In this document: positions 2,583 to 25,905 of the stretch, piece after piece | Layout of the letters: every line of letters starts with the position of its first letter | Numbering within the stretch: the stretch's first letter is position 1 | Virus record (IMG/VR): IMGVR_UViG_2711768032_000005 | Source of the DNA: a virus | Taxonomy: Duplodnaviria > Heunggongvirae > Uroviricota > Caudoviricetes | Strand: one strand, 5' to 3' | Length of the DNA stretch: 25,905 nt | Notes under the pieces: generated by a model | The model's input: the letters and a program-made list of their open reading frames with translations, nothing else | The model's database searches: none | Told to the model about the DNA's origin: nothing | Translations under genes and position numbers: made by a program

Positions 2583-3079
2583 CAGTGATGACGCTCAATC
2601 TCGTTGAAAAACAGCCAGCAGCTATGCGCCGGATAATTGGCAAGCATCTTGCCGTCCCTCGCTGGCAGGATACATGTGATTATTATAATCAGATGATGGA
2701 GCGCGAACGGCTAACGGTTTGCTTTCATGCACAGTTAAAACAGCGTCACGCAACGATGCGTTTTGAAGAAATGAACGACGTCGAACGTGAACGACTGGTT
2801 TGTGCAATTGATGAATTGCGTGGCGCATTCTCAAAACGCCGTCAGGTTGGTGCAAGTGAGTATGCATATATTAGTTTTTTAACAGTCAGTCAGCGTCGCA
2901 CTTTATTTATGCACGCACGACTGACTGAAAAAGAATTCAACCAGCCATACTGGCGAATTAATGAAGAATCATGTTACTGGCGTGATGCTTTGTTCCGTGC
3001 ATTACGTGAATTATTCAGCCTGTTTGAGTATGCACCGACAATTCTGACGTCGGTAAAACCAGAGCAATATCTGCATTAA
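2579..3079 (+). CDS. B: replication protein B-like
   Basis: 166 aa from ATG 2579, same length as P2 B as recalled; GGAGG 8 nt upstream; ATGA overlap with the preceding ORF. Alternative start ATG 2573. Confidence 0.65.
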   Translation: MTVMTLNLVEKQPAAMRRIIGKHLAVPRWQDTCDYYNQMMERERLTVCFHAQLKQRHATMRFEEMNDVERERLVCAIDELRGAFSKRRQVGASEYAYISFLTVSQRRTLFMHARLTEKEFNQPYWRINEESCYWRDALFRALRELFSLFEYAPTILTSVKPEQYLH

Positions 3080-3142
3080 ATAATTAACCAGAGTTTTTAA
3101 CGCACTTAATCGTGCGGGGCTTCTTTTTGCCTGGAGAAAGTC

Positions 3143-3367
3143 ATGCATACAGTTTCTGAAAATCAGTGCGGTATATACGCATTACTGCTGCAACAGGCCA
3201 GAACCGAAGCACAGGCCGACGCTGCGACGCGCTTTTCTTCTCATCTTGACGCCATGATTCGCCACATCACAAAGGCGGAGTTATCCCGCGTGGAGATAGT
3301 CGAGCTGCTAAGTCAGGAGTCGGAAAAATTTCACAATATCGGATTGTCTCGCGGGAAGGTGCTTTGA
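3143..3367 (+). CDS. hypothetical early protein
   Basis: 74-aa ORF with GGAGAAAG RBS; P2 early-region synteny. Confidence 0.5.
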
Positions 3368-3669
3368 TGTCCTGTTCTCATTCAGTTGTATTACTGAATA
3401 ACGCCTTAAAAATCGCCGTTATGAAAAATGGTGATTTGTCTCTTATTCAACTTTGTCTTGATAAAGAAAAACGCGACATAACTGAATCTGTTATCGCGAT
3501 TTATCAGAATGAATTAAACCTCCTGTCTGATGTGGTCAATTTACTTGTTAAACGCGCTGTATTCCACAAGCAAATTTCATCCGTGGATGAGCTGACAAAA
3601 TTAACGACAGAAATCGCCAGCTATTGCGCTGATGAATTCAAGAAACTGAACGATAAAAGGAGCTGGTAA
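3367..3669 (+). CDS. hypothetical early protein
   Basis: 100 aa from ATG 3367 (track start 3364 is TTG); TGATG overlap with the upstream ORF. Confidence 0.5.
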   Translation: MSCSHSVVLLNNALKIAVMKNGDLSLIQLCLDKEKRDITESVIAIYQNELNLLSDVVNLLVKRAVFHKQISSVDELTKLTTEIASYCADEFKKLNDKRSW

Positions 3670-3893
3670 TGCCGGACAACGTAGATTTTATTCAGGAACA
3701 ACAGGCTGAATTACTGGAGCGCCAGATTAACGCGGCAAGGGTAAAACATTGCGGTGTTTCTTCGCTGGTTTGCGAAGAGTGTGATGCGCCAATACCTGCT
3801 GCCCGTCGTGCGGCTTATCCGTCAGCCACGCGTTGTGTTTCCTGTCAGTCAGTCTTTGAAGCAAAAAACAAACATTACCGGAGAACGGCATGA
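3669..3893 (+). CDS. TraR/DksA-like C4 zinc-finger protein
   Basis: 74 aa; CEEC-(x17)-CVSC motif typical of the phage TraR/DksA zinc-finger family; AAGGAG RBS. Confidence 0.6.
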   Translation: MPDNVDFIQEQQAELLERQINAARVKHCGVSSLVCEECDAPIPAARRAAYPSATRCVSCQSVFEAKNKHYRRTA

Positions 3894-4165
3894 GTATTCG
3901 TATTGAAATTGGCGAACGTTATGTCGTTACCAGTGACAGCTTTCAGTTTATTCTCCACGAGAAAAAGAGGGCTGAAAGCGGTAAAAACGCCGGTCAGGAA
4001 TGGCTGGCGGTAGTTGGTTATTACCCGAAATTAAGCCAGCTCGTTTCCGGCATGATGCATCACGATATTCTGACCGGAAGCGCAAAGTCTTTTGCTGATT
4101 TAAACGCGCAGGTTGAGCAACTCAGCAAGCGTTGTTCAGAGGCTTTTGGCTCACATGGCCGTTAA
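3890..4165 (+). CDS. hypothetical early protein
   Basis: 91-aa ORF, GGAGAA RBS, ATGA overlap with the upstream ORF. Confidence 0.5.
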   Translation: MSIRIEIGERYVVTSDSFQFILHEKKRAESGKNAGQEWLAVVGYYPKLSQLVSGMMHHDILTGSAKSFADLNAQVEQLSKRCSEAFGSHGR

Positions 4166-6428
4166 AGCCTCCGGGCATTTTGTCCCTCCGTCAGCATTTG
4201 CCGCAGGCACCGGTAAGACGTTTACCGGTGCTTATGCATGGAACGCGCCACGCGAGGCCGTCGGGCGCGAAAGACCCCTTACACGTGACGAGATGCGTCA
4301 GGTGCAAGGTGTTTTATCCACGATTAACCGCCTGCCTTACTTTTTGCGCTCGCTGTTTACTTCACGCTATGACTACATCCGGCGCAATAAAAGCCCGGTG
4401 CACGGGTTTTATTTCCTCACATCCACTTTTCAGCGTCGTTTATGGCCGCGCATTGAGCGCGTGAATCAGCGCCATGAAATGAACACCGACGCGTCGTTGC
4501 TGTTTCTGGCAGAGCGCGACCAGTATGCGCGCCTGCCGGGGATGAATGACAAGGAGCTGAAAAAGTTTGCCGCCCGTATCTCATCACAGCTTTTCATGAT
4601 GTATGAGGAACTCTGCGATGCCTGGGTGGATGCGCATGGCGAGAAAGAATCGCTGTTTACGGATGAGGCGCAGGCTCACCTCTATGGTCATGTTGCTGGC
4701 GCTGCACGTGCTTTCAATATTTCCCCTCTCTACTGGAAAAAATACCGTAAAGGACAGATGACCACGAGGCAGGCATATTCTGCCATTGCCCGCCTGTTTA
4801 ACGATGAGTGGTGGACTCATCAGCTTAAAGGCCAGCGTATGCGCTGGCATGAGGCGTTACTGATTGCTGTCGGGGAGGTGAATAAAGACCGTTCTCCTTA
4901 TGCCAGTAAACATGCCATTCGTGATGTGCGTGCGCGCCGCCAGGCAAATCTGGAGTTTCTTAAATCGTGTGACCTTGAGAACAGGGAAACCGGCGAGCGC
5001 ATCGACCTTATCAGTAAGGTGATGGGCAGTATTTCTAATCCTGAAATTCGCCGGATGGAGCTGATGAACACCATTGCCGGTATTGAGCGTTACGCCGCCG
5101 CAGAGGGTGATGTGGGGATGTTTATCACGCTAACCGCGCCGTCAAAGTATCACCCGACACGTCAGGTCGGAAAAGGCGAAAGTAAAACCGTGCAGCTTAA
5201 TCACGGCTGGAACGATGAGGCATTTAATCCAAAGGATGCGCAGCGTTATCTCTGCCGTATCTGGAGCCTGATGCGCACGGCATTCAAGGATAATGATTTA
5301 CAGGTCTACGGTTTGCGTGTCGTCGAGCCACACCACGACGGAACGCCGCACTGGCATATGATGCTTTTTTGTAATCCACGCCAGCGTAACCAGATTATCG
5401 AAATCATGCGTCGCTACGCGCTCAAAGAGGATGGCGACGAAAGAGGAGCCGCGCGAAACCGTTTTCAGGCAAAACACCTTAACCGGGGCGGTGCTGCGGG
5501 ATATATCGCGAAATACATTTCAAAAAACATCGACGGCTATGCACTGGATGGTCAGCTCGATAACGATACCGGCAGACCGCTGAAAGACACTGCGGCGGCT
5601 GTTACCGCATGGGCGTCAACGTGGCGCATCCCGCAATTTAAAACGGTTGGACTGCCGACAATGGGGGCTTACCGTGAACTACGCAAATTGCCTCGCGGCG
5701 TCAGTATTGCTGATGAGTTTGACGAACGCGTCGAGGCTGCTCGCGCCGCCGCAGACAGTGGCGATTTTGCGCTGTATATCAGCACGCAGGGTGGGGCAAA
5801 TGTTCCGCGCGATTGTCAGACTGTCAGGGTTGCCCGTAGTCCGTCGGATGACGTTAACGAGTACGAGGAAGAAGTCGAGAGAGTGGTCGGCATTTACGCG
5901 CCGCATCTCGGCGCGCGTCATATTCATATCACCAGAACGACGGACTGGCGCATTGTGCCGAAAGTTCCGGTCGTTGAGCCTTTGACTTTAAAAAGCGGCA
6001 TCGCCGCGCCTCGGAGTCCTGTCAATAACTGTGGAAAGCTCACCGGTGGTGATACTTCGTTACCGGCTCCCACACCTTCTGAGCACGCCGCAGCCGTGCT
6101 AAATCTGGTTGATGACGGTGTTATCGAATGGAATGACCCGGAGGTCGTGAGGACGCTCAGGGGGGCATTAAAACACGGTCTGAGAAGACCAAACCGTCAG
6201 CAAAGAAACGGAAGCCCGTTAAAACCACATGAAATAGCACCGTCGGCCAGACTGACTCGGTCGGAACGATTGCAAATTACCCGTATCCGCGTTGACCTCG
6301 CTCAGAACGGTATCAGGCCGCAACGATGGGAGCTTGAGGCGCTGGCGCGTGGCGCGACCGTAAATTATGACGGGAAAAAATTCACGTATCCGATTGCTGA
6401 TGAGTGGCCGGAGTTTTCCGCAAACTAA
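4155..6428 (+). CDS. A: replication initiation protein A-like (rolling-circle nicking endonuclease)
   Basis: 757 aa from ATG 4155 (track ORF starts at TTG 4113; P2 A is about 761 aa as recalled). HUH-like HWHMMLF motif and paired tyrosines in GYIAKYISKNIDGY. Confidence 0.8.
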   Translation: MAVKASGHFVPPSAFAAGTGKTFTGAYAWNAPREAVGRERPLTRDEMRQVQGVLSTINRLPYFLRSLFTSRYDYIRRNKSPVHGFYFLTSTFQRRLWPRIERVNQRHEMNTDASLLFLAERDQYARLPGMNDKELKKFAARISSQLFMMYEELCDAWVDAHGEKESLFTDEAQAHLYGHVAGAARAFNISPLYWKKYRKGQMTTRQAYSAIARLFNDEWWTHQLKGQRMRWHEALLIAVGEVNKDRSPYASKHAIRDVRARRQANLEFLKSCDLENRETGERIDLISKVMGSISNPEIRRMELMNTIAGIERYAAAEGDVGMFITLTAPSKYHPTRQVGKGESKTVQLNHGWNDEAFNPKDAQRYLCRIWSLMRTAFKDNDLQVYGLRVVEPHHDGTPHWHMMLFCNPRQRNQIIEIMRRYALKEDGDERGAARNRFQAKHLNRGGAAGYIAKYISKNIDGYALDGQLDNDTGRPLKDTAAAVTAWASTWRIPQFKTVGLPTMGAYRELRKLPRGVSIADEFDERVEAARAAADSGDFALYISTQGGANVPRDCQTVRVARSPSDDVNEYEEEVERVVGIYAPHLGARHIHITRTTDWRIVPKVPVVEPLTLKSGIAAPRSPVNNCGKLTGGDTSLPAPTPSEHAAAVLNLVDDGVIEWNDPEVVRTLRGALKHGLRRPNRQQRNGSPLKPHEIAPSARLTRSERLQITRIRVDLAQNGIRPQRWELEALARGATVNYDGKKFTYPIADEWPEFSAN

Positions 6429-6600
6429 TAATGATGTTTGACAAAGAGTAATAAAGGGATGTTGACAAGGCTAAAATTTTTACCTGTCAGTATAGTTAGA
6501 GCAGTATAGTTCTGAGGAGTTCGAATATAACTAATGGGGCACTCTTTAATATGTGATTAACACGGTTATATTAAAATTAAATGCTCATAGGAATAAAATG

Positions 6601-6624
6601 AGGGCAAGAGGTTATTCTTGCCCT
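6601..6624. terminator. bidirectional intrinsic terminator between convergent gene A and the SIR2-like gene
   Basis: Perfect 9-bp stem AGGGCAAGA / TCTTGCCCT with 6-nt loop; U-rich tracts on both strands (TGATTTATT on plus, CATTTTATTC on minus); directly downstream of the SIR2-like stop at 6632. Confidence 0.6.
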
Positions 6625-6631
6625 TGATTTA

Positions 6632-9226
6632 TTAGGCGGCGATGTTGATGTTATTTTTATATTTTAAGAGGGCGCTTTCTGGAACTGCTGGCCAGGCTGA
6701 GTATCTATAATAGTTCATATAATCTTTCTCTATCAGTCTCTTTAACTGTTTGTTAGCCTGAACTTCATCGTCAAGTAAAAAGAATGCACACATGGATGTA
6801 GCCCCTTTTGAATTATTATGTGCTAAAACTGAATTTATCTCATTCTTTTTAATGTCTTGTCTTTGTTTTTTCTTGGCAACTTCCCTATTGATTATTAAAA
6901 CATCTTTCTCTCTGTAATCTTTGATTTTTTCAAGATTTTCATTAGTTATTTTAATTGTTTCTTTATAGTTTCCTGCAAGAAGGTTAGTATAAGATTTTCC
7001 TAAGATATAATCACTAAACCCGTAACCTTTCTCATAAGCTTCATCAAGAAGAATTATCGCTTTTTCATAATCGCCGTTTAAAGATGCAATATCAGATTTT
7101 AATTTCAAAATGGTTATTTCTGATTTATTTCTTGGCAGGCTGTCAATAAACTCCTCTGCCAATTTGATGTTGTTTTTATCAATTAGCAATATGTCTATAA
7201 TACTGTCTGTATGATTATTCTTCCACGGACAATTCATGGCTTCTTTGGCTAATTCAATGCCAGCTTTGATGTCTCTGTTGCAGCCTATCTCATATCGAGC
7301 TTTAAATATAATGAAAGGAGCAATTCTTGCAATGTCGCCCTCTTCTTCATATTTATCAATAAAGTCTTTCATCAAGCCGGGAGTGTTTTCGTCAAAGTCT
7401 GTTTCAAATAAAGATAGATGCAGTTGTGTTAAATATTTTAATATATTTCTCTTTTTATTTTTTGATGATGTTTTGTAAACGTTGGATAATTTATCTATGC
7501 ACAATAATGCCTCTTCTTTTTTTTGCAATGCGCAGGTGAAATCAGTATATAACGACAAATATGTATCGTGAGTAGGGTTAACATCTTTTATTTTATCAAG
7601 TAGTTCTTGTATTGATTTGTTACAATCTTTCTTATCATAGCTTGATTGATGTTTTGTCTTTATCGCGTCATATTTTATTCTCCATGCAATATTATCCAGA
7701 TTACTGCTTTGGAGTAAACTTTTATCAATTAAATCATGTATTTCATCAAAGGTTATTAATTCCTCATCATGATTTTCTAGATGTAGAATAGCAATTCTGC
7801 TTAAATGATTCTTAAGATTTATGCTATATGGGAATTTTTCTAGCAATCCCTTTAGGTAATGTATTTTTTCATTTAGATCTGTGAATATGTTTGTCCTTGA
7901 TAGGGCGTAATTTATATTAAATTCATCAAGAGCTATGAGTTTATCACTAATTTCTAATGCTGACTTTGTGTCTTTTTGTTCTTCTTTTATTTCAATTAGC
8001 CTACGTAGATATTTAGATTTTATATTGTCACTATCAGCGTTATTGATTAAATCATTCAGTTTTGACTCTGCGTTTGAATAATTTTTATTTCTAATGAGGT
8101 TGTCAATGTATAACAAATTCTTAAAATCTTCTTCGGGAATTTTTTGTTCGTCTAAATCACTTTGGGATAGCTCGTTTATTAATGATGATATGTCATGTGT
8201 TAGAGTGTGTTTTTTTAATTTTGAGAGGTCAGATTTGATAATGTTATTTTTAGATAAGCTGTACTCATCTGTTATAAAGTTTTGAATCATCATCTCTCTT
8301 TTTGTGGATTTTTGATTCCCTCCAAAAGAGAGTGTGCAGCCTAATTCAAGGGCTAGTTCTGCCATTAATTCATCAAAGCCTTCTATTTCTACCCAATAAA
8401 CTTTCTCTTGACCTAGAAGCCTAATTAGTTCTGGTGGGATGGCGTCATTTTGTCTTACGCACCAATATACCCCATTCCGTAGGTAATCGTCCTGTTTTAA
8501 TAAATGTTTTAAAACATCCATGATAGAGCTGTCATTGCCAGCATAACCAACAAAAATAACCCCGTATTCTTTAGTGAATTCAGTTAGTTTTTCACGAGTG
8601 TTACCTTCTAATGACTCGGTTTCTTTTAAAGAGCTTTTTATGCTATCAAATAGATAATCACCATGTAATTTTATTATTTTTGGTCTTGAAGAAGTAATTG
8701 AGACGCCTTTAATTGATGAGTCATGTGCGCATAATAATGGTCTGTCAGAAGAAAATTGATAAAATGCTTCATTTATTAAATCGTCAAAATTTGTTGTGAA
8801 GACAGTATCAAAAAACTTTGATTCAAATAGTTCAACGAGATAAGCATATCCAATTGAAGGTAATTTTTTGTCTACTTGAAGCTCAACAAATCTTCTGCGT
8901 TGAGATGGGAGATCAAATTTCTTTTCAAAAAGAGAGGAGTATTCATTGTTTGGGTCGTACCAGACTGGATGGTTTTTGGATAGCCATTTTTTAGCTTCTT
9001 CGGCATCGATATATTCTTTATTGGATAGTCTTGTGTATATCTCTTCTCTCCATGTTGCAACTAACTCTTGACCAGTTTTTATTCCTGATGTAACGGATGC
9101 ACCAGCACCAAGAAAGAGTGAATAGTTAGGTGATGTACCTGATTTGATTTTTATATAATCTGCTAAATCTTTAACTGTTCTTTTTTTGGCAACCAGTTGT
9201 TCCTTGGTAGTATCACGATCAGACAT
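6632..9226 (-). CDS. SIR2-like (sirtuin-type NADase) domain protein with long helical C-terminal region; candidate anti-phage defence effector
   Basis: 864 aa; ATG at 9226 with strong GGAGGG RBS. N-terminal 300 aa carry SIR2-type motifs FLGAGAS (37-44), TTNFD (Asn146, codon 8789-8791), KLHGD (His188, codon 8663-8665), GYAGND; Asn-His spacing of 42 is similar to ThsA and DSR2. AT-rich, unlike flanking phage genes. Confidence 0.8.
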   Translation of the reverse strand: MSDRDTTKEQLVAKKRTVKDLADYIKIKSGTSPNYSLFLGAGASVTSGIKTGQELVATWREEIYTRLSNKEYIDAEEAKKWLSKNHPVWYDPNNEYSSLFEKKFDLPSQRRRFVELQVDKKLPSIGYAYLVELFESKFFDTVFTTNFDDLINEAFYQFSSDRPLLCAHDSSIKGVSITSSRPKIIKLHGDYLFDSIKSSLKETESLEGNTREKLTEFTKEYGVIFVGYAGNDSSIMDVLKHLLKQDDYLRNGVYWCVRQNDAIPPELIRLLGQEKVYWVEIEGFDELMAELALELGCTLSFGGNQKSTKREMMIQNFITDEYSLSKNNIIKSDLSKLKKHTLTHDISSLINELSQSDLDEQKIPEEDFKNLLYIDNLIRNKNYSNAESKLNDLINNADSDNIKSKYLRRLIEIKEEQKDTKSALEISDKLIALDEFNINYALSRTNIFTDLNEKIHYLKGLLEKFPYSINLKNHLSRIAILHLENHDEELITFDEIHDLIDKSLLQSSNLDNIAWRIKYDAIKTKHQSSYDKKDCNKSIQELLDKIKDVNPTHDTYLSLYTDFTCALQKKEEALLCIDKLSNVYKTSSKNKKRNILKYLTQLHLSLFETDFDENTPGLMKDFIDKYEEEGDIARIAPFIIFKARYEIGCNRDIKAGIELAKEAMNCPWKNNHTDSIIDILLIDKNNIKLAEEFIDSLPRNKSEITILKLKSDIASLNGDYEKAIILLDEAYEKGYGFSDYILGKSYTNLLAGNYKETIKITNENLEKIKDYREKDVLIINREVAKKKQRQDIKKNEINSVLAHNNSKGATSMCAFFLLDDEVQANKQLKRLIEKDYMNYYRYSAWPAVPESALLKYKNNINIAA

Positions 9227-9531
9227 TTTCCCTCCATAAATTATGCTGTGTGAAGTAAGAATAATCCTAGGTATGGCTATTTTTACATGAAATTCAATGG
9301 GTTTTCGTTTTTCTTATTTGCATTTTGTGACTGAGATCAAGCTATGAGGGAGAAATACTTTTTTATTGTTCGCTAGAGGCTAATTAGCTTGTACTAATAG
9401 TTTATGATGTACCATAGCGTTGAATGATTTTGCATGCATTTGTCAGATGCTTACTAATGTTGTTATGTCAGAGCTGGTGCGCTTTAGGTTATTTCATGCA
9501 ACTGCATTAAAACCGACCCATGAAGTGGGCG

Positions 9532-9550
9532 GGCGAGGCGGGGAAAGCAC
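9532..9550. other. cos: cos site, P2-type 19-nt cohesive end sequence
   Basis: GGCGAGGCGGGGAAAGCAC matches the P2 cohesive-end sequence as I recall it; lies between the cargo island and portal gene Q, where P2 cos is expected. Recalled, not searched. Confidence 0.6.
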
Positions 9551-9690
9551 TGCGCGCTGGCGGTGGTGCTGATTTTATTTTCCAGCGTCTCAGCGCGTCG
9601 TGACGGCGCTTAGTCTGCCCGTTGGGGGTTGGTGTGTCTGCGGGGTGTTTTGTGCGGTGGTGAGCGAGTGAGGGCGTGATGACGGGGTAT

Positions 9691-9712
9691 AAAAAAGCCG
9701 CCCGCAGGCGGC
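9691..9712 (-). terminator. intrinsic terminator downstream of Q (minus strand)
   Basis: GC stem GCCGCC / GGCGGC with 4-nt loop, followed on the minus strand by a T6 run; begins 5 nt after the Q stop. Confidence 0.5.
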
Positions 9713-9717
9713 GATGT

Positions 9718-10752
9718 TCAGCCGTTGTCAGTGTCCAGTGAGTAGTTTTTAAAGCGGATGACCTCCTGACCGAGCCAGCCGTTTATCTCGCGGATCCTGT
9801 CCTGTAGCGGGATAAGCTCATTGCGGACAAAGACCTTTGCCACTTTCTCAATATCACCCAGCGACCCGACGTTCTCCGGCTTGCCGCCCATCAACTGAAA
9901 GGGGATGCGGTGCGCGTCCAGCAGGTCAGCGGCGCTGGCTTTTTTGATATTAAAAAAATCGTCCTTCGTTGCCACTTCACTGAGCGGGATAATTTTGATG
10001 CCGTCGGCTTTCCCCTGTGGGGCATAGAGAAACAGATTTTTAAAGTTGTTGCGGCCTTTCGACTTCACCATGTTTTCGCGGAGCATTTCGATATCGTTGC
10101 GATCCTGCACGGCATCAGTGACGTACATGATGTATCCGGCATGAGCGCCGTTTTCGTAATACTTGCGGCGGAACAGTGTGGCTGATTCATTCAGCCAGGC
10201 AGAATTAAGGGCGCTGAGATATTCCGGCAGGCCGTACAGCTCCTGATTGATATCCGGCTCCAGCAGGTGAAACACGGAGCCGGGCGTGAAGGCTGTCGGC
10301 TCGTTGAAGGACGGCACCCACCAGTAAACATCCTCCTCCACGCCACGGCGGGTATATTTTGCCGGTGAGGTTTCCAGTCTGATGACCTTACCGGTGGTGC
10401 TGTAACGCTTTTCCAGAAACGCATTACCGAACACCAGAAAATCCAGCACAAAGCGGCTGAAATCCTGTTGCGAAAGCCACGGATGCGGGATAAATGTCGA
10501 GGCCAGAATATTGCGTTTAACGTAAATCGGTGAGCTGTGATGCACGGCAGCACGCAGGCTTTTCGCCAGACCGGTAAAGCTGACCGGCGGCTCATACCAT
10601 CTGCCGTTACTGATGCACTCGACGTAATCCAGAATGTCACGGCGGTCGAGTACCGGCACCGGCTCACCAAAGGTGAAGGCCTCCATTTTCGGGGCGCTGG
10701 CGGTCATTTTTTTTGCCTCAGGTTGCGGTGTTTTCCCTTTTTTCTTGCTCAT
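9718..10752 (-). CDS. Q: portal protein Q-like
   Basis: 344 aa, same length as P2 Q as recalled; start overlaps the P stop (ATGA); opposite orientation to the O-N-M-L block as in P2. Confidence 0.9.
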   Translation of the reverse strand: MSKKKGKTPQPEAKKMTASAPKMEAFTFGEPVPVLDRRDILDYVECISNGRWYEPPVSFTGLAKSLRAAVHHSSPIYVKRNILASTFIPHPWLSQQDFSRFVLDFLVFGNAFLEKRYSTTGKVIRLETSPAKYTRRGVEEDVYWWVPSFNEPTAFTPGSVFHLLEPDINQELYGLPEYLSALNSAWLNESATLFRRKYYENGAHAGYIMYVTDAVQDRNDIEMLRENMVKSKGRNNFKNLFLYAPQGKADGIKIIPLSEVATKDDFFNIKKASAADLLDAHRIPFQLMGGKPENVGSLGDIEKVAKVFVRNELIPLQDRIREINGWLGQEVIRFKNYSLDTDNG

Positions 10753-12524
10753 CAGTAAAACTCCAGAATGGTGGATGTCAGCGGAGTGCTGATACCGGCG
10801 GTGAGTGGCTCATTTAACAGGGCGTGCATGGTTGCCCAGGCGAGGTCGGCGTGGCTGGCTTCCTCGCTGCGGCTGGCCTCATAGGTGGCGCTGCGTCCGC
10901 TGCTGGTCATGGTCTTGCGGATAGCCATAAACGAGCTGGTGATGTCGGTGGCGCTGACGTCATATTCCAGACAGCCACGGCGGATAACGTCTTTTGCCTT
11001 GAGCACCATTGCGGTTTTCATTTCCGGCGTGTAGCGGATATCGCGCGCGGCGGGATAGAACGAGCGCACGAGCTGGAACACGCCGACACCGAGGCCGGTG
11101 GCATCAATACCGATGTATTCGACGTTGTATTTTTCGGTGAGTTTGCGGATGGATTCCGCCTGAGTGGCAAAGTCCATGCCTTTCCACTGGTGACGCTCAA
11201 GTATTCTGAATTTGCCACCGGCCACCACCGGCGGTGCCAGCACCACGCATCCGGCGCTGTCGCCACGGTGTGACGGGTCGTAACCAATCCATACCGGGCG
11301 GGAGCCGAACGGATTCGCGGCAAACGGCGCATAGTCTTCCCATTCTTCCAGCGTGTCGACCATGCAGCGTTGCAGCTCCTCGAACGGGAACACCGACGCC
11401 TTGTCGTCAACAAATTCACACATGAACAGGTTTTTAAAATCGTCGGCGCTGTTTTCACGTTTGAGCTGCTCAATGTCGAACAGCGTGCAGCCACCTTTCA
11501 GGGCGTCCTCAATGGTGACAATCTGCCGCCACTGGCCGTCCGCACAGAGAAGCCCACCGGCAAGGGCGTTATGACTGACGTCGATTTCCACGCGTTCGGC
11601 GGCGCTGGCGCGTCCCCGGTTGAACAGTTCACCTGACCAGAACGGGTAGGCGTCGTGCGCCAGCGTGGACGGGGTGGAGAAATAGGTCGAACGCAGGTGA
11701 CTCTGTGAGGCCATACCTGATGCCACCTTACGCAGTACCTGAAAATTCGGGATCCAGAAAATCTCGTCGACGTACAGGTCGCCGTTATGGCTCTGTGCGG
11801 TGTTGGAGTTGGTGCCGAGAAAAATTAGTTTTGCGCCGTTATTGCCCAGGACAATCGGGTCACCGGTCAGGTCAACGTCAACCAGACGGGCAAAGGCGAT
11901 GATGTATTCGCGGAACACATACGCCTGCGTTTTACTGGCCGACAGAAAAATCTGGTTATGACCGGTTTTCAGGGCGCGCAGCAGCGCCTCGCGGGAAAAA
12001 TAAAACGTCGCGCCAATCTGGCGGGATTTCAGGATATCGCGGATGCGGTGCTCAAGCCCGGCGCGATACCAGTGCAACTGATATTCGAAAGACTGCTCAA
12101 AGAAAATCTGCTCCAGCTTTTCGATGGCCTCGTCACTGAAAAAATTCTTTTTCGGTTTGCGACGCCCGCCTTTGTTGCGGTTAGCGACGTTCGGATTAAG
12201 GTCTGCCTCGTTGCCGGTCTGACTGTAGCGGTTTACCCGTGCCAGTCGTTCAATCTGGCGTCCCAGCAGGTCAATTTCCTTGAAGTCACCGCCGGTTTTC
12301 TGCGGTTTGATGATGAGCTGGGTCAGTCGCGCTTCCAGACTCATTTCGACACGGCTGATGGGGGCAACGCTGTCCCAGCCGTCGCGCTGTTTCCAGCTCT
12401 GCACCGTCGGGCGTTTCATCTGCAACATGGCGGCAATCTGCGGCACGGAAAACCCCTGCCAGTACAGCAGCGCCGCCTGACGACGCGGGTCGTGTAAAAG
12501 AGTGGTGTCTGTGGTGATGGTCAT
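10752..12524 (-). CDS. P: terminase large (ATPase) subunit P-like
   Basis: 590 aa from ATG 12524 (GAGG RBS 6 nt upstream), same length as P2 P as recalled; the track ORF extends 10 codons further upstream. Confidence 0.85.
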   Translation of the reverse strand: MTITTDTTLLHDPRRQAALLYWQGFSVPQIAAMLQMKRPTVQSWKQRDGWDSVAPISRVEMSLEARLTQLIIKPQKTGGDFKEIDLLGRQIERLARVNRYSQTGNEADLNPNVANRNKGGRRKPKKNFFSDEAIEKLEQIFFEQSFEYQLHWYRAGLEHRIRDILKSRQIGATFYFSREALLRALKTGHNQIFLSASKTQAYVFREYIIAFARLVDVDLTGDPIVLGNNGAKLIFLGTNSNTAQSHNGDLYVDEIFWIPNFQVLRKVASGMASQSHLRSTYFSTPSTLAHDAYPFWSGELFNRGRASAAERVEIDVSHNALAGGLLCADGQWRQIVTIEDALKGGCTLFDIEQLKRENSADDFKNLFMCEFVDDKASVFPFEELQRCMVDTLEEWEDYAPFAANPFGSRPVWIGYDPSHRGDSAGCVVLAPPVVAGGKFRILERHQWKGMDFATQAESIRKLTEKYNVEYIGIDATGLGVGVFQLVRSFYPAARDIRYTPEMKTAMVLKAKDVIRRGCLEYDVSATDITSSFMAIRKTMTSSGRSATYEASRSEEASHADLAWATMHALLNEPLTAGISTPLTSTILEFY

Positions 12525-12697
12525 GAATACCTCGCCGTGATGAATACACGGCAAGGCTACTGAGTCGCGCCCCGCGATTCGCTAAGGTGCTGTTGTGTCA
12601 GTGATAAGCCATCCGGGACTGATGGCGGAGGATGCGCATCGTCGGGAAACTGATGCCGACATGTGACTCCTCTAATCACTATTCAGGACTCCTGACA

Positions 12698-13552
12698 ATG
12701 GCAAAAAAAGTCTCAAAATTCTTTCGTATCGGCGTTGAGGGTGACACCTGTGACGGGCGTGTCATCAGTGCGCAGGATATTCAGGAAATGGCCGAAACCT
12801 TTGACCCGCGTGTCTATGGTTGCCGCATTAACCTGGAACATCTGCGCGGCATCCTGCCTGACGGTATTTTTAAGCGTTATGGCGATGTGGTCGAACTGAA
12901 GGCCGAAAAGATTGACGATGATTCGGCGCTGAAAGGCAAATGGGCGCTGTTTGCGAAAATCACCCCGACCGATGACCTTATCGCGATGAACAAGGCCGCG
13001 CAGAAGGTCTATACCTCAATGGAAATTCAGCCGAACTTTGCCAATACCGGCAAATGTTATCTGGTGGGTCTGGCCGTCACCGATGACCCGGCAAGCCTCG
13101 GCACGGAATACCTGGAATTCTGCCGCACGGCAAAACACAACCCTCTGAACCGCTTCAAATTAAGCCCTGAAAACCTGATTTCAGTGGCAACGCCTGTTGA
13201 GCTGGAATTTGAAGACCTGCCTGAAACCGTGTTCACAGCCCTGACCGAAAAGGTGAAATCCATTTTTGGCCGCAAACAGGCCAGCGATGACGCCCGTCTG
13301 AATGACGTGCATGAAGCGGTGACCGCTGTCGCTGAGCATGTGCAGGAAAAACTGAGCGCCACTGAGCAGCGCCTTGCTGAGATGGAAACCGCCTTTTCCG
13401 CACTTAAGCAGGATGTGACTGACAGGGCGGATGAAACCAGTCAGGCATTCACCCGCCTGAAAAACAGTCTCGACCACACCGAAAGTCTGACCCAGCAGCG
13501 CCGCAGTAAAGCCACCGGCGGTGGCGGTGACGCCCTGATGACGAACTGCTAA
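12698..13552 (+). CDS. O: capsid scaffolding protein O-like
   Basis: 284 aa from ATG 12698, same length as P2 O as recalled; the track ORF begins 22 codons upstream; coiled-coil rich C-terminus. Confidence 0.85.
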   Translation: MAKKVSKFFRIGVEGDTCDGRVISAQDIQEMAETFDPRVYGCRINLEHLRGILPDGIFKRYGDVVELKAEKIDDDSALKGKWALFAKITPTDDLIAMNKAAQKVYTSMEIQPNFANTGKCYLVGLAVTDDPASLGTEYLEFCRTAKHNPLNRFKLSPENLISVATPVELEFEDLPETVFTALTEKVKSIFGRKQASDDARLNDVHEAVTAVAEHVQEKLSATEQRLAEMETAFSALKQDVTDRADETSQAFTRLKNSLDHTESLTQQRRSKATGGGGDALMTNC

Positions 13553-21390: not shown

Positions 21391-23601
21391 ATGAGCACAA
21401 AATTCAGAACCGTTATCACCACTGCCGGTGCAGCAAAGCTGGCAGCGGCAACCGCACCGGGAGGGCGGAAGGTCAACATTACCACGATGGCCGTCGGGGA
21501 TGGCGGTGGTAAATTGCCTGTCCCGGATGCCGGACAGACCGGGCTTATCCATGAAGTCTGGCGACATGCGCTGAACAAAATCAGCCAGGACAAACGAAAC
21601 AGTAATTATATTATCGCAGAGCTGGTTATTCCGCCGGAGGTGGGCGGTTTCTGGATGCGTGAGCTTGGCCTGTACGATGATGCGGGAACGTTAATTGCTG
21701 TGGCGAACATGGCTGAAAGTTATAAGCCTGCCCTTGCCGAAGGCTCAGGGCGTTCGCAGACCTGCCGCATGGTCATCATCGTCAGCAGTGTGGCCTCAGT
21801 GGCGCTGACCATTGACACCACAACGGTGATGGCAACGCAGGATTACGTTGATGACAAAATTGCAGAGCACGAACAGTCACGACGTCACCCGGACGCCTCG
21901 CTGACCGCAAAAGGTTTTACTCAGCTAAGCAGCGCGACCAACAGCACGTCTGAAACACTGGCCGCAACGCCGAAAGCGGTAAAGGCCGCATATGACCTTG
22001 CTAACGGGAAATATACTGCACAGGATGCCACTACAGCGCGAAAAGGCCTTGTTCAGCTCAGTAGTGCGACTAACAGCACGTCTGAAACGCTCGCCGCAAC
22101 GCCGAAAGCGGTAAAGGCCGCATATGACCTTGCTAACGGGAAATACACTGCACAGGACGCCACCACAGCGCGAAAAGGTCTTGTCCAGCTCAGTAGCGCC
22201 ACCAACAGCGATTCTGAAACGCTTGCGGCAACGCCAAAGGCGGTAAAGGCCGCGTATGACCTTGCTAACGGGAAATACACTGCACAGGATGCCACCACGG
22301 CGCGAAAAGGGCTTGTCCAGCTCAGTAGCGCCACCAACAGTGATTCTGAAACGCTGGCCGCAACACCAAAAGCGGTGAGGTCTGCCTATGACAATGCTGA
22401 AAAACGTCTTCAGAAAGATCAGAACGGTGCGGATATTCCGGGAAAGGATACCTTCACGAAAAATATCGGTGCCTGTCGTGCTTATAGCGGCGCTTTGAGC
22501 ACTGAAGCCGGAAACTGGACAACCGCTCAGTTTATTGACTGGCTAGAGTCTCAGGGAGCCTTTAATCATCCTTACTGGATGTGCAAGTGTTCCTGGTCAT
22601 ATGGTAATAACAAAATTATTACCGATACTGACTGTGGGACTATTCATCTTGCAGGTTGCGTGATTGAGGTTATGGGCGTTAAAGCAGCAATGACCATTCG
22701 TGTGACCACTCCGAGTACATCAAGCGGTGGTGGTACCACCAGTGCGCAATTCACGTATATCAATCACGGAGCTGATTATGCGCCGGGCTGGCGACGCGAC
22801 TACAATACGAAAAATAAGCAACCGGCTTTTGCATTAGGGAAAACAGGAAATACGGTTGCAAATAATAAAGCGGTAGGATGGAACTGGGACAGTGGTGCTT
22901 ATTGTGCACAGGATGGCGGAGCATCAAAAATGGTGTTGCATTTTTACACGGGTGAGGGAAGTTGTCCGGCAATGCAGTTTCTTGTGGATTATAAAAACAG
23001 GGGGATTTTTTACAGGTCGGCACGTGATGGGTATGGATTTGAGGCTGACTGGTCAGAGTTTTATACCACATCACGAAAGCCAACACCTGCGGATATTCTT
23101 GCTCTGGCATTATCAGGCGGAAGCATGTCAGGCAGCATAAAATTTATCAATGATGCCTTCCTGATTTGGGAAAGAAACACTGACTGGGCGAAAATTGGAT
23201 TTAAAAATGATTCAGATGCTGATTCTGACTCATACATGTGGTTTGAAACTGGTGATAATGGCAATGAATATTTTAAATGGCGCATCAGGTCTGGCAGCAC
23301 AACAAAAGATCTGATGACGCTTAAGTCTGATGCACTACGGGTTACCGGGCAGGTGATACCATCAAATTTCAGCAATTTTGACTCCCGCTATGTCCGGGAT
23401 ATCCGACTTGGTGGTGCCGCCACATACAAACCTGCGAACAATGGCATGACATGGACACATCAGGCACCGTCCGGGTGTGTATATACCGGCATTATTGTTC
23501 AGGATACCGGCTCAAACTCTGCCGATAACATTGGTGGCGTATATTACAGACCGGTTCAGAAATACATTAACGGGACATGGTACAACGTGGCGCAGGTATA
23601 A
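21391..23601 (+). CDS. H: tail fibre protein H-like, with internal tandem repeats and a divergent middle segment
   Basis: 736 aa; N-terminus MSTKFRTVITTAGAAKLAAA and C-terminal tip QKYINGTWYNVAQV resemble P2 H as recalled (P2 H is shorter, about 669 aa). Confidence 0.85.
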   Translation: MSTKFRTVITTAGAAKLAAATAPGGRKVNITTMAVGDGGGKLPVPDAGQTGLIHEVWRHALNKISQDKRNSNYIIAELVIPPEVGGFWMRELGLYDDAGTLIAVANMAESYKPALAEGSGRSQTCRMVIIVSSVASVALTIDTTTVMATQDYVDDKIAEHEQSRRHPDASLTAKGFTQLSSATNSTSETLAATPKAVKAAYDLANGKYTAQDATTARKGLVQLSSATNSTSETLAATPKAVKAAYDLANGKYTAQDATTARKGLVQLSSATNSDSETLAATPKAVKAAYDLANGKYTAQDATTARKGLVQLSSATNSDSETLAATPKAVRSAYDNAEKRLQKDQNGADIPGKDTFTKNIGACRAYSGALSTEAGNWTTAQFIDWLESQGAFNHPYWMCKCSWSYGNNKIITDTDCGTIHLAGCVIEVMGVKAAMTIRVTTPSTSSGGGTTSAQFTYINHGADYAPGWRRDYNTKNKQPAFALGKTGNTVANNKAVGWNWDSGAYCAQDGGASKMVLHFYTGEGSCPAMQFLVDYKNRGIFYRSARDGYGFEADWSEFYTTSRKPTPADILALALSGGSMSGSIKFINDAFLIWERNTDWAKIGFKNDSDADSDSYMWFETGDNGNEYFKWRIRSGSTTKDLMTLKSDALRVTGQVIPSNFSNFDSRYVRDIRLGGAATYKPANNGMTWTHQAPSGCVYTGIIVQDTGSNSADNIGGVYYRPVQKYINGTWYNVAQV
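21910..22396 (+). repeat. four tandem 132-bp (44-aa) in-frame repeats inside the tail fibre gene
   Basis: Units start at 21910, 22042, 22174, 22306. Protein unit KGLVQLSSATNS(T/D)SETLAATPKAVKAAYDLANGKYTAQDATTAR; by eye copies 2 and 3 differ at about 13 of 132 nt, mostly synonymous; the fourth copy diverges in its last third. Confidence 0.85.
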
Positions 23602-23604
23602 TTT

Positions 23605-23646
23605 ATGCAGCATTTGCGTATTACCGTGAAGGAGATCGGTGAGTAA
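23605..23646 (+). pseudogene. 13-codon ORF (MQHLRITVKEIGE) at the position of tail-fibre assembly gene G; possible 5' remnant interrupted by the IS
   Basis: ATG 4 nt after the H stop; first four residues MQHL match my uncertain recollection of the P2 G N-terminus; stop at 23644-23646; IS genes follow. Confidence 0.3.
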
Positions 23647-23699
23647 CATCGATGGAGATCGGTTCGTGTCACTTTCACAGAACCGTTTTTAAATTACCT

Positions 23700-24352
23700 T
23701 CACTGATCTCCTTCGGTCAACGGAGATTGTATTTTCCGCATTGATTCTCCTTTAAGTTCGATCTTGATACTGCCATGAACCAGTCGATCTAGGATGGCAT
23801 CCGCATGTGTGGAGTCTCCGATCATTTTGTACCAGTTTTCCACCGGCAACTGGCTCACTACGATGATTGAGCCTCGTTGGTACATCAGATCCACTATTTC
23901 CAGCAGGTCGCTACATGCCCCTGATAGCACTGTTCCATCAGCGCTTTAAGGCGATAATAGTAGACCTTGTATCCCTGTCGGCAGGCATTATGACCAAGTG
24001 CACATGCCAGGAACGTTTTACCGCTGCCGGTGGCCCCGGTCAGTAAAATATTTTGTTTCAGGGTTAACCAGTTTCCCTGACTGAGTGAACGGATGAGGGC
24101 CCTGTCCAGCCCTCTATTGTTACGATAATCCAGCTTTGATAACTCAGCATTAAGTCTGAACCGTGCATGTTTGATCAGACGCTCTGCCTTCCTGTTTTCA
24201 CGGCAGGTTAGTTCTTCTGCTGTCAGTAATGACAGGCGTTCTTCGAAGCCCAGCTCCTGGTATGTGCCCGGTTGAGCAAGTTGCTTTTTAAGCGCATCAC
24301 GGAAGCCGGTGAGTTTAAGTGCGGTCAGTTGTTCGTAAAGATGATTCATCAT
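23700..24352 (-). pseudogene. istB: istB (IS21 helper ATPase), disrupted
   Basis: Two fragments in different frames (23894..24352 with Walker A; 23700..23930 with C-terminal RGSIIVVSQLP...ILDRLVHGS...KGESMR). Frames overlap around 23930-23945 and the segment expected to hold Walker B (hhhhDE) appears missing. Confidence 0.65.
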
Positions 24353-24363
24353 TGGATCCCGTA

Positions 24364-25905
24364 TCAGTGGTAATACTCACTGCCGCGTACGTTTTCGTGT
24401 TCCATCGTGGATAACAGATCTGGTTTTGGATCCTGAACAGGTTGTTTATCCAGACCTTTTTCCAGGATCGATTTAATACCTGACAGACGCCATACCTTTG
24501 TTTTCAGAGCTCTTGCACATGCTGCATTAAGTCTGGCTTTACTGTATTTTTTATGAAGGTTCAGGAGTCCAAGGCAGAAGCGATAGCTTTGTTCCGGATG
24601 TGGACGAGAGTTCAGTATATGAAGCACATAACTATGAGTTTCACTGCCTATGTGCCCCGCCCATTCCAGAAGACGCTCTGGCGTCCAGGTGGCATGCTGT
24701 CGATGAGCTTCAGGCATGTGCTCGTTGCGGGTACTGTAGCCATAAGTACGCTTGCGCGGGTGCACAGCAACCTCCTGCCCCTGATTGAAGAGTCTTACCA
24801 GTTCTCCGGAGATCCATGCTTCCAGTTGCTGGCCTAACAGCGAACATGGAACCGAGTAGTAATGTTTGTCGATTTCCACGTGGTAATCGGCATGAACTCT
24901 GACTTTCTTCACCAGGGTGTAACTGTAACTGGCTTCAGGAAGAGGCTTCAGTGCGGGTTTATCAAGCTGGATGAAGAGTTCTGCACGTGAATAACCCAAC
25001 TTCTGCATTATTTTGTTATTCAGTCTTTCCAGCAACTCCCGAATGCGCTGATTAAGCGATGCAAGGCTGTAGAAGATCTCATGCCTGATTCGGGCCATGA
25101 TCCAGCGTTCAACAACCTGAACGCCAACTTCAGCTTTGGCTTTATCTTTCGGTTTACGTGGCCGCGCAGGCAAAACTGCGACATTATAATGCTCAAGCAT
25201 CTGCTGGTAGGTAGGGTTAACGTCAGGATCATACTTACATGCCCTGGATGTGGCGCTTTTCAGATTGTCCGGAACAACAAGTTCAGGAACGCCACCCAAC
25301 CACTGGAAGCAGCGAACATGACTCATCACCCAGTCTTCAAGCTGCTGAGACCAGGTGGCCTCTGCCCATGTGTAACTTGATGCCCCGAGAACAGCTACGA
25401 TGACCTGAGCAGTTCTTATTTCTCCGGTCTCAGGGTCGGTAACGCCAACGGTAGGTCCACAGTAATCAACGAAAAGTTTTTCGCCAGCTTTATGTACCTG
25501 ACGCATTGATGGTGAAGTGGTTTTGAGCCATTCACGGTACATCCGGCAGTAATGGTTATAGCTGTAAAAACCGCCTGGATTACGCTCACAGTATTCTTCC
25601 CAGAGTAGCTGCAGCGTCACGCATTTATTACGCAGTTCCCGGTGTACTGTAGCCCAGTCAGGCAGAGAGTGCTTCTTCATCTTAACCTGGGTCTGAAGGA
25701 ACGCATGTTTTAGTTTTGTATCATCCCATCCTGTAGGTAAGGGCCACTGCTTTATGCCAAGTTGAGCCGCCCGATTAGCATATCTGGATACAACGGAAGG
25801 GGAGATTGCAAGACTACGACCAATTTGTCGATGGCTGAGTCCAACACCGTATTTAAGCCTAAGAATTTCTTTAAGTTTTCTCATAGAAATTGGAACTGTT
25901 GGCAT
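24364..25905 (-). CDS. istA: IS21-family transposase IstA
   Basis: 513-aa ORF; N-terminal HTH (LSHRQIGRSLAISPSVVSRY); directly upstream of istB. ATG lies at the last three bases of the window, so the true start could be further upstream. Confidence 0.8.
   Translation of the reverse strand: MPTVPISMRKLKEILRLKYGVGLSHRQIGRSLAISPSVVSRYANRAAQLGIKQWPLPTGWDDTKLKHAFLQTQVKMKKHSLPDWATVHRELRNKCVTLQLLWEEYCERNPGGFYSYNHYCRMYREWLKTTSPSMRQVHKAGEKLFVDYCGPTVGVTDPETGEIRTAQVIVAVLGASSYTWAEATWSQQLEDWVMSHVRCFQWLGGVPELVVPDNLKSATSRACKYDPDVNPTYQQMLEHYNVAVLPARPRKPKDKAKAEVGVQVVERWIMARIRHEIFYSLASLNQRIRELLERLNNKIMQKLGYSRAELFIQLDKPALKPLPEASYSYTLVKKVRVHADYHVEIDKHYYSVPCSLLGQQLEAWISGELVRLFNQGQEVAVHPRKRTYGYSTRNEHMPEAHRQHATWTPERLLEWAGHIGSETHSYVLHILNSRPHPEQSYRFCLGLLNLHKKYSKARLNAACARALKTKVWRLSGIKSILEKGLDKQPVQDPKPDLLSTMEHENVRGSEYYH

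Follow-up and report, generated by a model that had tools for sequence, protein, structure and literature searches.

The cargo slot between gpA and gpQ

The stretch of DNA analysed here (the window) is the complete 25,905-nucleotide virus record IMGVR_UViG_2711768032_000005 from IMG/VR, which is assigned to the Caudoviricetes. It holds a P2-like prophage that adjoins the host gene yegR and in which int, C, cox, B and A are followed by an AT-rich island, by cos and by Q, P, O and N. The island, which is the subject of this study, is the cargo slot between gpA and gpQ, beside cos, of this prophage and carries a single gene for a protein of 864 amino acids with an N-terminal SIR2 domain and a C-terminal TPR superhelix (Table 1). 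This gene is referred to as the SIR2-TPR gene in the following.

For a comparison with P2, the window was aligned by blastn to NC_001895 with the ends of the reference joined through cos. The identity to P2 is ~97% over 3001-6411 and 9503-13000. As the homology stops at 6411 and restarts at 9503, the exchanged segment comprises 6412-9502. Its counterpart in P2 is the orf91-tin-old segment (P2 30291-33545, 3255 bp). A first-pass annotation of the window, made from the sequence alone, had placed the island at 6429-9531 and had described it as a replacement of tin and old. The island itself as well as the loss of these two genes could be confirmed, but its limits were off by 17 and 29 nt and the description was incomplete, as orf91 is replaced too. 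The same annotation had stated that the backbone genes on both sides match their P2 counterparts exactly in length. This is correct for Q, which encodes 344 amino acids in both phages, but not for A, which encodes 757 amino acids versus 761 in P2 because the left junction falls within its last six codons (6412-6428).

A sharp fall of the G + C content (GC) after A and a recovery near cos had already been pointed out, and the sliding-window analysis is in agreement with this (~0.54 to 0.32). Per 400-nt window, GC was 0.51-0.57 in gene A, 0.28-0.36 from ~6400 to 9400 and at least 0.53 from 9400 on; the cassette as a whole has a GC of 0.322 versus 0.528 for the remainder of the window. As orf91-tin-old of P2 also has a GC of only 0.35, AT-richness is a property of the slot and not of the SIR2 cargo alone. 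On its right side the cassette is followed by a 29-nt cos flank, which is common to 186, L-413C and other P2-like phages, and by the 19-mer GGCGAGGCGGGGAAAGCAC at 9532-9550, which is the cohesive-end sequence of P2. With the right junction being 29 nt from cos, the island would occupy the right end of the packaged DNA, like old in P2. The earlier view that the island abuts cos and lies at one end of the packaged genome thereby holds, with the right end being the predicted one.

The idea of a cassette exchange at a fixed hotspot, also put forward in the first-pass annotation, is supported by the identity to P2 that persists up to both junctions while the contents between them differ, and by a comparison of closely related backbones, in which the flanks are conserved and the content is variable. 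In Escherichia coli S40 (locus L014, 3614-6901), for example, the Q region is 99.9% identical to that of the window, whereas the cassette in the slot comprises three plus-strand genes, one for a PP2C phosphatase and two for Ser/Thr kinases. Of the 5426 complete E. coli genomes searched, 2133 contain the Q/cos region, with 2993 places in total, and 19 contain the SIR2-TPR island. In all five carriers that were checked the island lies between A and Q, and its alleles in E. coli share 99%, 95%, 93%, 85% and 76% nucleotide identity with the window. Relatives having the same gene at a backbone-like composition were not observed, as the two carriers checked for this exhibited a GC of 0.31-0.32. In E. 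coli F5505-C1, which represents the 76% class (locus L002, 5443-6040), ~560 nt separate A from the SIR2-TPR gene and begin with a remnant of the start of P2 orf91. This persisting stub after A indicates that the left recombination junction differs among carriers.

Several complete E. coli RefSeq chromosomes (e.g., NZ_CP055048, NZ_AP027537, NZ_CM139232) start at the P2 gene A. In NZ_AP027537 gene A is annotated from record position 1, and in such records the island is found at ~2.3-5.4 kb. Our guess is that a start-fixing tool used during assembly took the phage replication gene for the chromosomal start gene.

The locus as such is a textbook example of the cos-adjacent defence hotspot of P2. 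Odegrip reportedly described the tin/old region of P2 as a hotspot ('TO region') as early as 2006. The gpA-gpQ interval has been published as a P2 defence hotspot with 1650 arrangements (Rousset 2022, PMC9122126), and four new systems were found in it (Vassallo 2022, PMC9519451). The window shares with this hotspot the slot, the flanks, the AT-rich cargo, the position next to cos and the leftward orientation known from old and tin. There is no difference at the locus level, and even the cargo is catalogued there, apparently without having been tested: Table S5 of Rousset et al. lists an arrangement 'SIR2_2' comprising WP_061357923, WP_124831363 and WP_128553443 (PMC9122126). The 95% and 85% alleles are annotated with the former two accessions, and WP_128553443 belongs to a 90%-identity protein cluster with 78% protein identity to the protein of the window. 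The sole SIR2 protein tested by Rousset et al., pFR88, is borne by a P4 satellite and is an unrelated protein, not the SIR2-TPR protein of the window. The exchange of cassettes and the SIR2_2 arrangement are already in the literature, and the contribution of the present analysis is that the cargo has been identified.

Architecture of the SIR2-TPR protein

The cargo consists of one long open reading frame (ORF) on the minus strand. No further ORF of at least 30 amino acids lies inside either intergenic stretch of the island; a 50-amino-acid ORF (9420-9572) runs from the upstream intergenic stretch across cos. Neither an Rfam family nor a tRNA was found anywhere in the window. The suggestion that the island holds one gene with its own ribosome-binding site and a bidirectional terminator is in agreement with this single ORF, with the GGAGGG motif in front of it and with a hairpin that scores on both strands. 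The ribosome-binding site is kept across the allele classes as GGAGGG, GGGGGG or GGGAGA. The hairpin is terminator-like for the SIR2-TPR gene on the minus strand as well as for read-through from A on the plus strand, and its stem is conserved in five of five allele classes. Upstream of the gene, the 25-nt block ACAAATGCATGCAAAATCATTCAAC, which includes the 8-bp palindrome TGCATGCA, has the same sequence in all allele classes but the 76% class, the fifth one, where it carries one substitution, with the adjoining upstream DNA being more diverged. This block is absent from P2 and from the other cargo types of the slot. It may be a promoter or operator element.

The SIR2 domain gave a Pfam SIR2_2 match at residues 141-261. 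Matches in PADLOC were confined to the N-terminal part of the protein (residues 27 to 394 at most) and were led by the Argonaute-associated SIR2-APAZ and fused SIR2-pAgo (prokaryotic Argonaute) models (Aga_SIR2, E 1e-58); the PADLOC candidate PDC-S65 was also matched (E 3.6e-26). The closest solved relative is the SIR2-APAZ chain of the Geobacter SPARSA system (8jkz), which aligned over residues 33-291 with an E-value of 1e-22 (family profile: E 9e-29). In this alignment N146 and H188 correspond to N142 and H186 of GsSir2. These two residues were described in the paper on GsSir2 (SPARSA) as the catalytic ones, which drive the hydrolysis of NAD+ and become aligned only after tetramerisation of SIR2. 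All 48 homologues compared (38-78% identity) share G40, G42, S44, N146, D148 and H188, which match the catalytic set S51, N133, D135 and H171 of DSR2 by the order of the motifs, not by a direct alignment to DSR2. Taken by sequence, the SIR2 domain is closest to the defence-type, pAgo-associated (SIR2-APAZ) clade.

According to an AlphaFold2 model (mean pLDDT 83), residues 1-300 of the protein form a Rossmann-type SIR2 domain, which is connected by two helices (308-355) to a helical solenoid that runs without interruption over residues 365-860 and has a pLDDT mostly above 90. The family profile matches consensus TPR proteins (E 3e-7). In a Foldseek search the SPARSA SIR2 ranked first, followed by loose full-length alignments to DSR2. 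No Walker A motif is present in the protein, and no NTPase was matched in Pfam or PADLOC. The cargo thereby combines a defence-clade SIR2 domain with a TPR receptor of ~500 residues and does so without an NTPase, an APAZ domain or a partner gene.

Table 1. Features of the cargo slot and of its surroundings in the window (+, plus strand; -, minus strand;., no strand assigned).
Feature	Position	Strand	Description and basis
Replication gene A	4155..6428	+	757 aa; RefSeq annotation of a 99.3%-identical locus mapped onto the window
Variable AT-rich cassette	6412..9502	.	3091 bp, GC 0.322; blastn against joined P2 ends and composition
GC-rich hairpin flanked on each side by T-runs	6599..6626	.	terminator-like on both strands (scan); stem 9-12 bp
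SIR2-TPR cargo gene	6632..9226	-	864 aa, one long ORF; Pfam SIR2_2 E 3.6e-15
TPR superhelix, presumed sensor (aa 366-864)	6635..8131	-	most variable part of the protein
SIR2 (NAD-binding) domain (aa 1-300)	8327..9226	-	G40, G42, S44, N146, D148, H188 invariant
Ribosome-binding site GGAGGG	9230..9235	-	3 nt before ATG; read from sequence
25-nt block ACAAATGCATGCAAAATCATTCAAC with 8-bp palindrome TGCATGCA	9419..9443	-	candidate element; allele-class alignment
cos region	9503..9550	.	conserved 29-nt cos flank, then 19-nt cohesive-end sequence 9532-9550; P2 homology and NC_001895 cosL/cosR annotation
Portal gene Q	9718..10752	-	344 aa, P2 length; tQ terminator at 9697-9712
Truncated istB	23894-24352		152 aa, profile positions 2-135 of 238
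istA	24364-25905		start codon of istA forms the exact end of the window

Among the known SIR2 systems, DSR2 offers the best analogy. Like DSR2, the SIR2-TPR protein is a single polypeptide in which an N-terminal SIR2 domain with the S/N/D/H catalytic set is followed by a long C-terminal alpha-solenoid. In DSR2 this solenoid binds a structural protein of the phage, which activates NAD+ hydrolysis in the tetramer (PMC11850899). The two proteins differ in that the SIR2 domain of the window is of the pAgo-associated clade, that its solenoid is a canonical TPR solenoid whereas that of DSR2 is HEAT-like, and that the protein is ~140 residues shorter. A DSR2 proper would also have its NADase switched on, as a tetramer, by a tail-tube protein of the phage. 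PADLOC gave no DSR match at E up to 1, and no DSR2 chain was found in a profile search of the PDB at E up to 10. Membership in DSR2 was therefore rejected despite the shared layout of SIR2 and solenoid, as there is no sequence homology to DSR2 models or chains. In its presumed way of working the SIR2-TPR protein nevertheless resembles DSR2 most, by analogy and without being a sequence member. The SIR2-APAZ proteins of SPARSA (Geobacter sulfurreducens; PDB 8jkz, 8in8, 8y80), on the other hand, are nearest in the sequence of the SIR2 domain, including the aligned catalytic N and H, but differ in the remainder: the protein of the window has a TPR C-terminus and possesses neither an APAZ domain, nor an adjacent short pAgo, nor a nucleic-acid guide machinery. 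With no APAZ domain and no Argonaute gene in the single-gene island, it was not assigned to SPARSA either.

Three further candidates were considered and rejected. Avs5 (SIR2-STAND) does not apply, since the protein has neither a Walker A motif nor a STAND NTPase module and gave no PADLOC match to Avs; SIR2-HerA and Thoeris do not apply, since the island has no ORF for a HerA or ThsB partner and the protein matches no SLOG domain. A PADLOC match to Rst was also not obtained for the cargo protein. Two Vibrio prophage elements and a Haloferax virus each carry a single gene in which the same SIR2 clade is combined with another C-terminus. The two Vibrio orphan SIR2s (PQ189330, PQ189367) are prophage-borne single genes like the gene of the window and their SIR2 domain is 47-49% identical to it over residues 19-338. 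However, these proteins comprise 612-624 amino acids and the match ends at about residue 338, so that their C-terminus differs. The elements that carry them are a P2/186-like prophage and an element of the tectivirus class (Vinavirales), in which the genes adjoin integrase or repressor genes; no Argonaute gene is annotated near either of them.

Allelic variation and mobility of the gene

Each of the six E. coli copies that were examined has an intact reading frame of 2595 nt. With the exception of the nearly identical 99.3% copy, dN/dS among these copies is 0.05-0.27, and the gene is under purifying selection in E. coli. Of the SIR2 and TPR parts, the latter is the faster to diverge. In the allele of E. 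coli NWU_3, compared with the window, the SIR2 part exhibits a dS of 0.02, and the linker and TPR parts exhibit a dS of 0.43-0.48, with 0.48 for the TPR part. This mosaic pattern suggests an intragenic recombination by which sensor regions are reshuffled.

Beyond E. coli, the full-length family (~865 amino acids) is present in Enterobacterales, Aeromonas, Vibrio, Shewanella and Pseudoalteromonas. When residues 366-864, the TPR part, were searched against 1.84 billion representative proteins, 105 matches were obtained, i.e., ~100 representative proteins with one per 50%-identity cluster. Nearly all of them are 850-915 amino acids long and agree in the position of the TPR part; the shorter ones are fragments which contain SIR2 remnants or the TPR part only. 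A swapping of effectors on the same TPR sensor was considered as well and was rejected, as no alternative effector exists among these 105 matches. No phage in INPHARED carries the island, and the protein search there matched the SIR2 part only, in four records.

The homologues outside of P2-like prophages were found in quite different surroundings. In Cedecea, Shewanella and Aeromonas a solitary homologue is inserted between housekeeping genes, and in Atlantibacter it has an OLD-like ATPase and AbiTii as neighbours in an islet rich in integrases. A Pantoea plasmid is the sole plasmid found to have a full-length homologue. In Yersinia enterocolitica (locus L016, contig of SRR30873199, 3789-12595) a P4-like satellite harbours a 52%-identical homologue, which is flanked by the integrase and Ogr/Delta genes, with AlpA, Ash and the alpha primase being encoded downstream. 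As this homologue sits in a P4-like satellite, the family uses both P2 and P4 hotspots. The full-length homologues had a GC of ~0.30-0.32 in each case checked, with host flanks of 0.43-0.58. Non-coding flanks common to P2-borne and non-P2 copies were not found. Taken together, the gene is mobile as a stand-alone unit, a pattern which is typical of defence genes.

An intact homologue of 864 amino acids (72% amino acid identity) is also present in Citrobacter koseri (locus L015, GCA_034299255.1, 3865-9067). There, it is flanked by truncated remnants of gpQ (3865-4721) and gpA (7727-9067), neither of which had been called as a gene, and it adjoins HicAB and yegS at the same chromosomal site. No other P2 genes are left, i.e., in C. 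koseri the cargo gene has outlived its prophage.

A putative NADase and phage sensor

With these findings it appears probable that the slot cargo is a single-protein abortive-infection NADase, which is triggered by a phage protein binding to its TPR domain. In the lysogen the SIR2-TPR protein would be produced in an inactive form. Upon infection by another phage, a protein of this phage would bind to the TPR solenoid, and the binding would rearrange an oligomer of the SIR2 domains in such a way that His188 becomes aligned with Asn146. The enzyme could then hydrolyse NAD+ and the infected cell would cease to support the growth of the phage (abortive infection). This proposed mechanism is modelled on those established for DSR2 (PMC11850899), SPARSA and ThsA.

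However, several points weigh against this interpretation. A convincing sigma-70 promoter was not found in the 276 nt at 9227-9502 on the minus strand, neither with consensus nor with relaxed-threshold scans, in which even the best candidate overlapped with the start codon. Expression in the lysogen is therefore to be regarded as putative. An insertion sequence (IS) interrupts the prophage after H, ahead of the tail-fibre assembly gene. This IS element, ISEc12 of the IS21 family, is located at 23598-25905 directly after the tail-fibre gene H (21391-23601), and the phage context may be defective because of it, or else the contig may simply end at a repeat. In PADLOC, no match to the validated single-gene SIR2 defence models DSR1, DSR2, Avs5 and ThsA was obtained, and the full-length similarity to DSR2 in Foldseek is weak (TM ~0.2, 13% identity). 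Searches of the literature did not yield any study of the SIR2-TPR family, nor any on 'SIR2-TPR' or 'PDC-S65'. Finally, SIR2 domains may also be deacylases or ADP-ribosyltransferases.

This last point leads to an explanation which we consider unlikely, namely that the SIR2 domain ADP-ribosylates or deacylates a specific phage or host protein recruited by the TPR part and blocks the infection without the death of the cell. To our knowledge, the characterised bacterial defence SIR2s deplete NAD+. By a wide margin, the protein is nearest in sequence to the NADase SIR2s of short-pAgo systems, and depletion of NAD+ is documented in the papers on SPARSA, DSR2 (PMC11850899) and ThsA. It also seems rather improbable that the cargo is not directed against phages at all and has another lysogenic-conversion or selfish function, for example as a metabolic or stress regulator or as an addiction toxin which stabilises the prophage. 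The P2 hotspot does host non-defence cargo such as partition systems and a cytolethal distending toxin (PMC9122126), and the defence role of the SIR2-TPR gene is a putative one. Yet, the combination of a defence-clade SIR2 with a repeat sensor that varies, the distribution as a solitary mobile gene, the presence in P2 as well as P4 hotspots and neighbours like the OLD-like ATPase, AbiTii and HicAB are all in keeping with a defence gene, and the island contains no antitoxin-like partner ORF.

The GC of 0.32 and the lack of a recognisable sigma-70 promoter would be compatible with a silent passenger, i.e., AT-rich DNA which is repressed in the lysogen (e.g., by H-NS) and has no current function. 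This is highly improbable in view of a frame that is intact in every allele with a dN/dS well below 1, of the conserved ribosome-binding site, terminator and 25-nt upstream block, of the intact copy retained in the decayed prophage of C. koseri, and of the ~100 representative proteins which match the C-terminal domain and have nearly all kept the same architecture. Most remote of all is a SPARSA-like action that needs a guide-loaded Argonaute in trans. It could be suspected from the top PADLOC and PDB matches being SIR2-APAZ and fused SIR2-pAgo models, but these alignments stop by about residue 390, the rest of the protein is TPR and not APAZ, and neither the island nor any of the nine homologue contexts examined contains a pAgo gene. 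None of these four explanations is favoured by the data.

Going beyond the single gene, our judgement is evenly balanced on whether the ~865-amino-acid SIR2-TPR proteins constitute a distinct family of single-protein, NTPase-free phage sensors, in which an Argonaute-type SIR2 NADase would have been rewired to a TPR receptor. In such a family, the phage protein that is recognised would depend on allelic and recombinational variation of the TPR part, and the gene would circulate via the hotspots of P2 helpers and P4 satellites and be kept by its hosts after the decay of the prophage. The relic in C. koseri, which keeps the gene after the loss of the phage, argues that the gene benefits the host. 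If this proposal is true, the SIR2-TPR protein would represent a compact single-gene SIR2 sensor made of an Argonaute-clade NADase and a TPR receptor without any NTPase, and its natural alleles, which span 76-99% nucleotide identity and include a mosaic, would be useful for mapping how the trigger is recognised.

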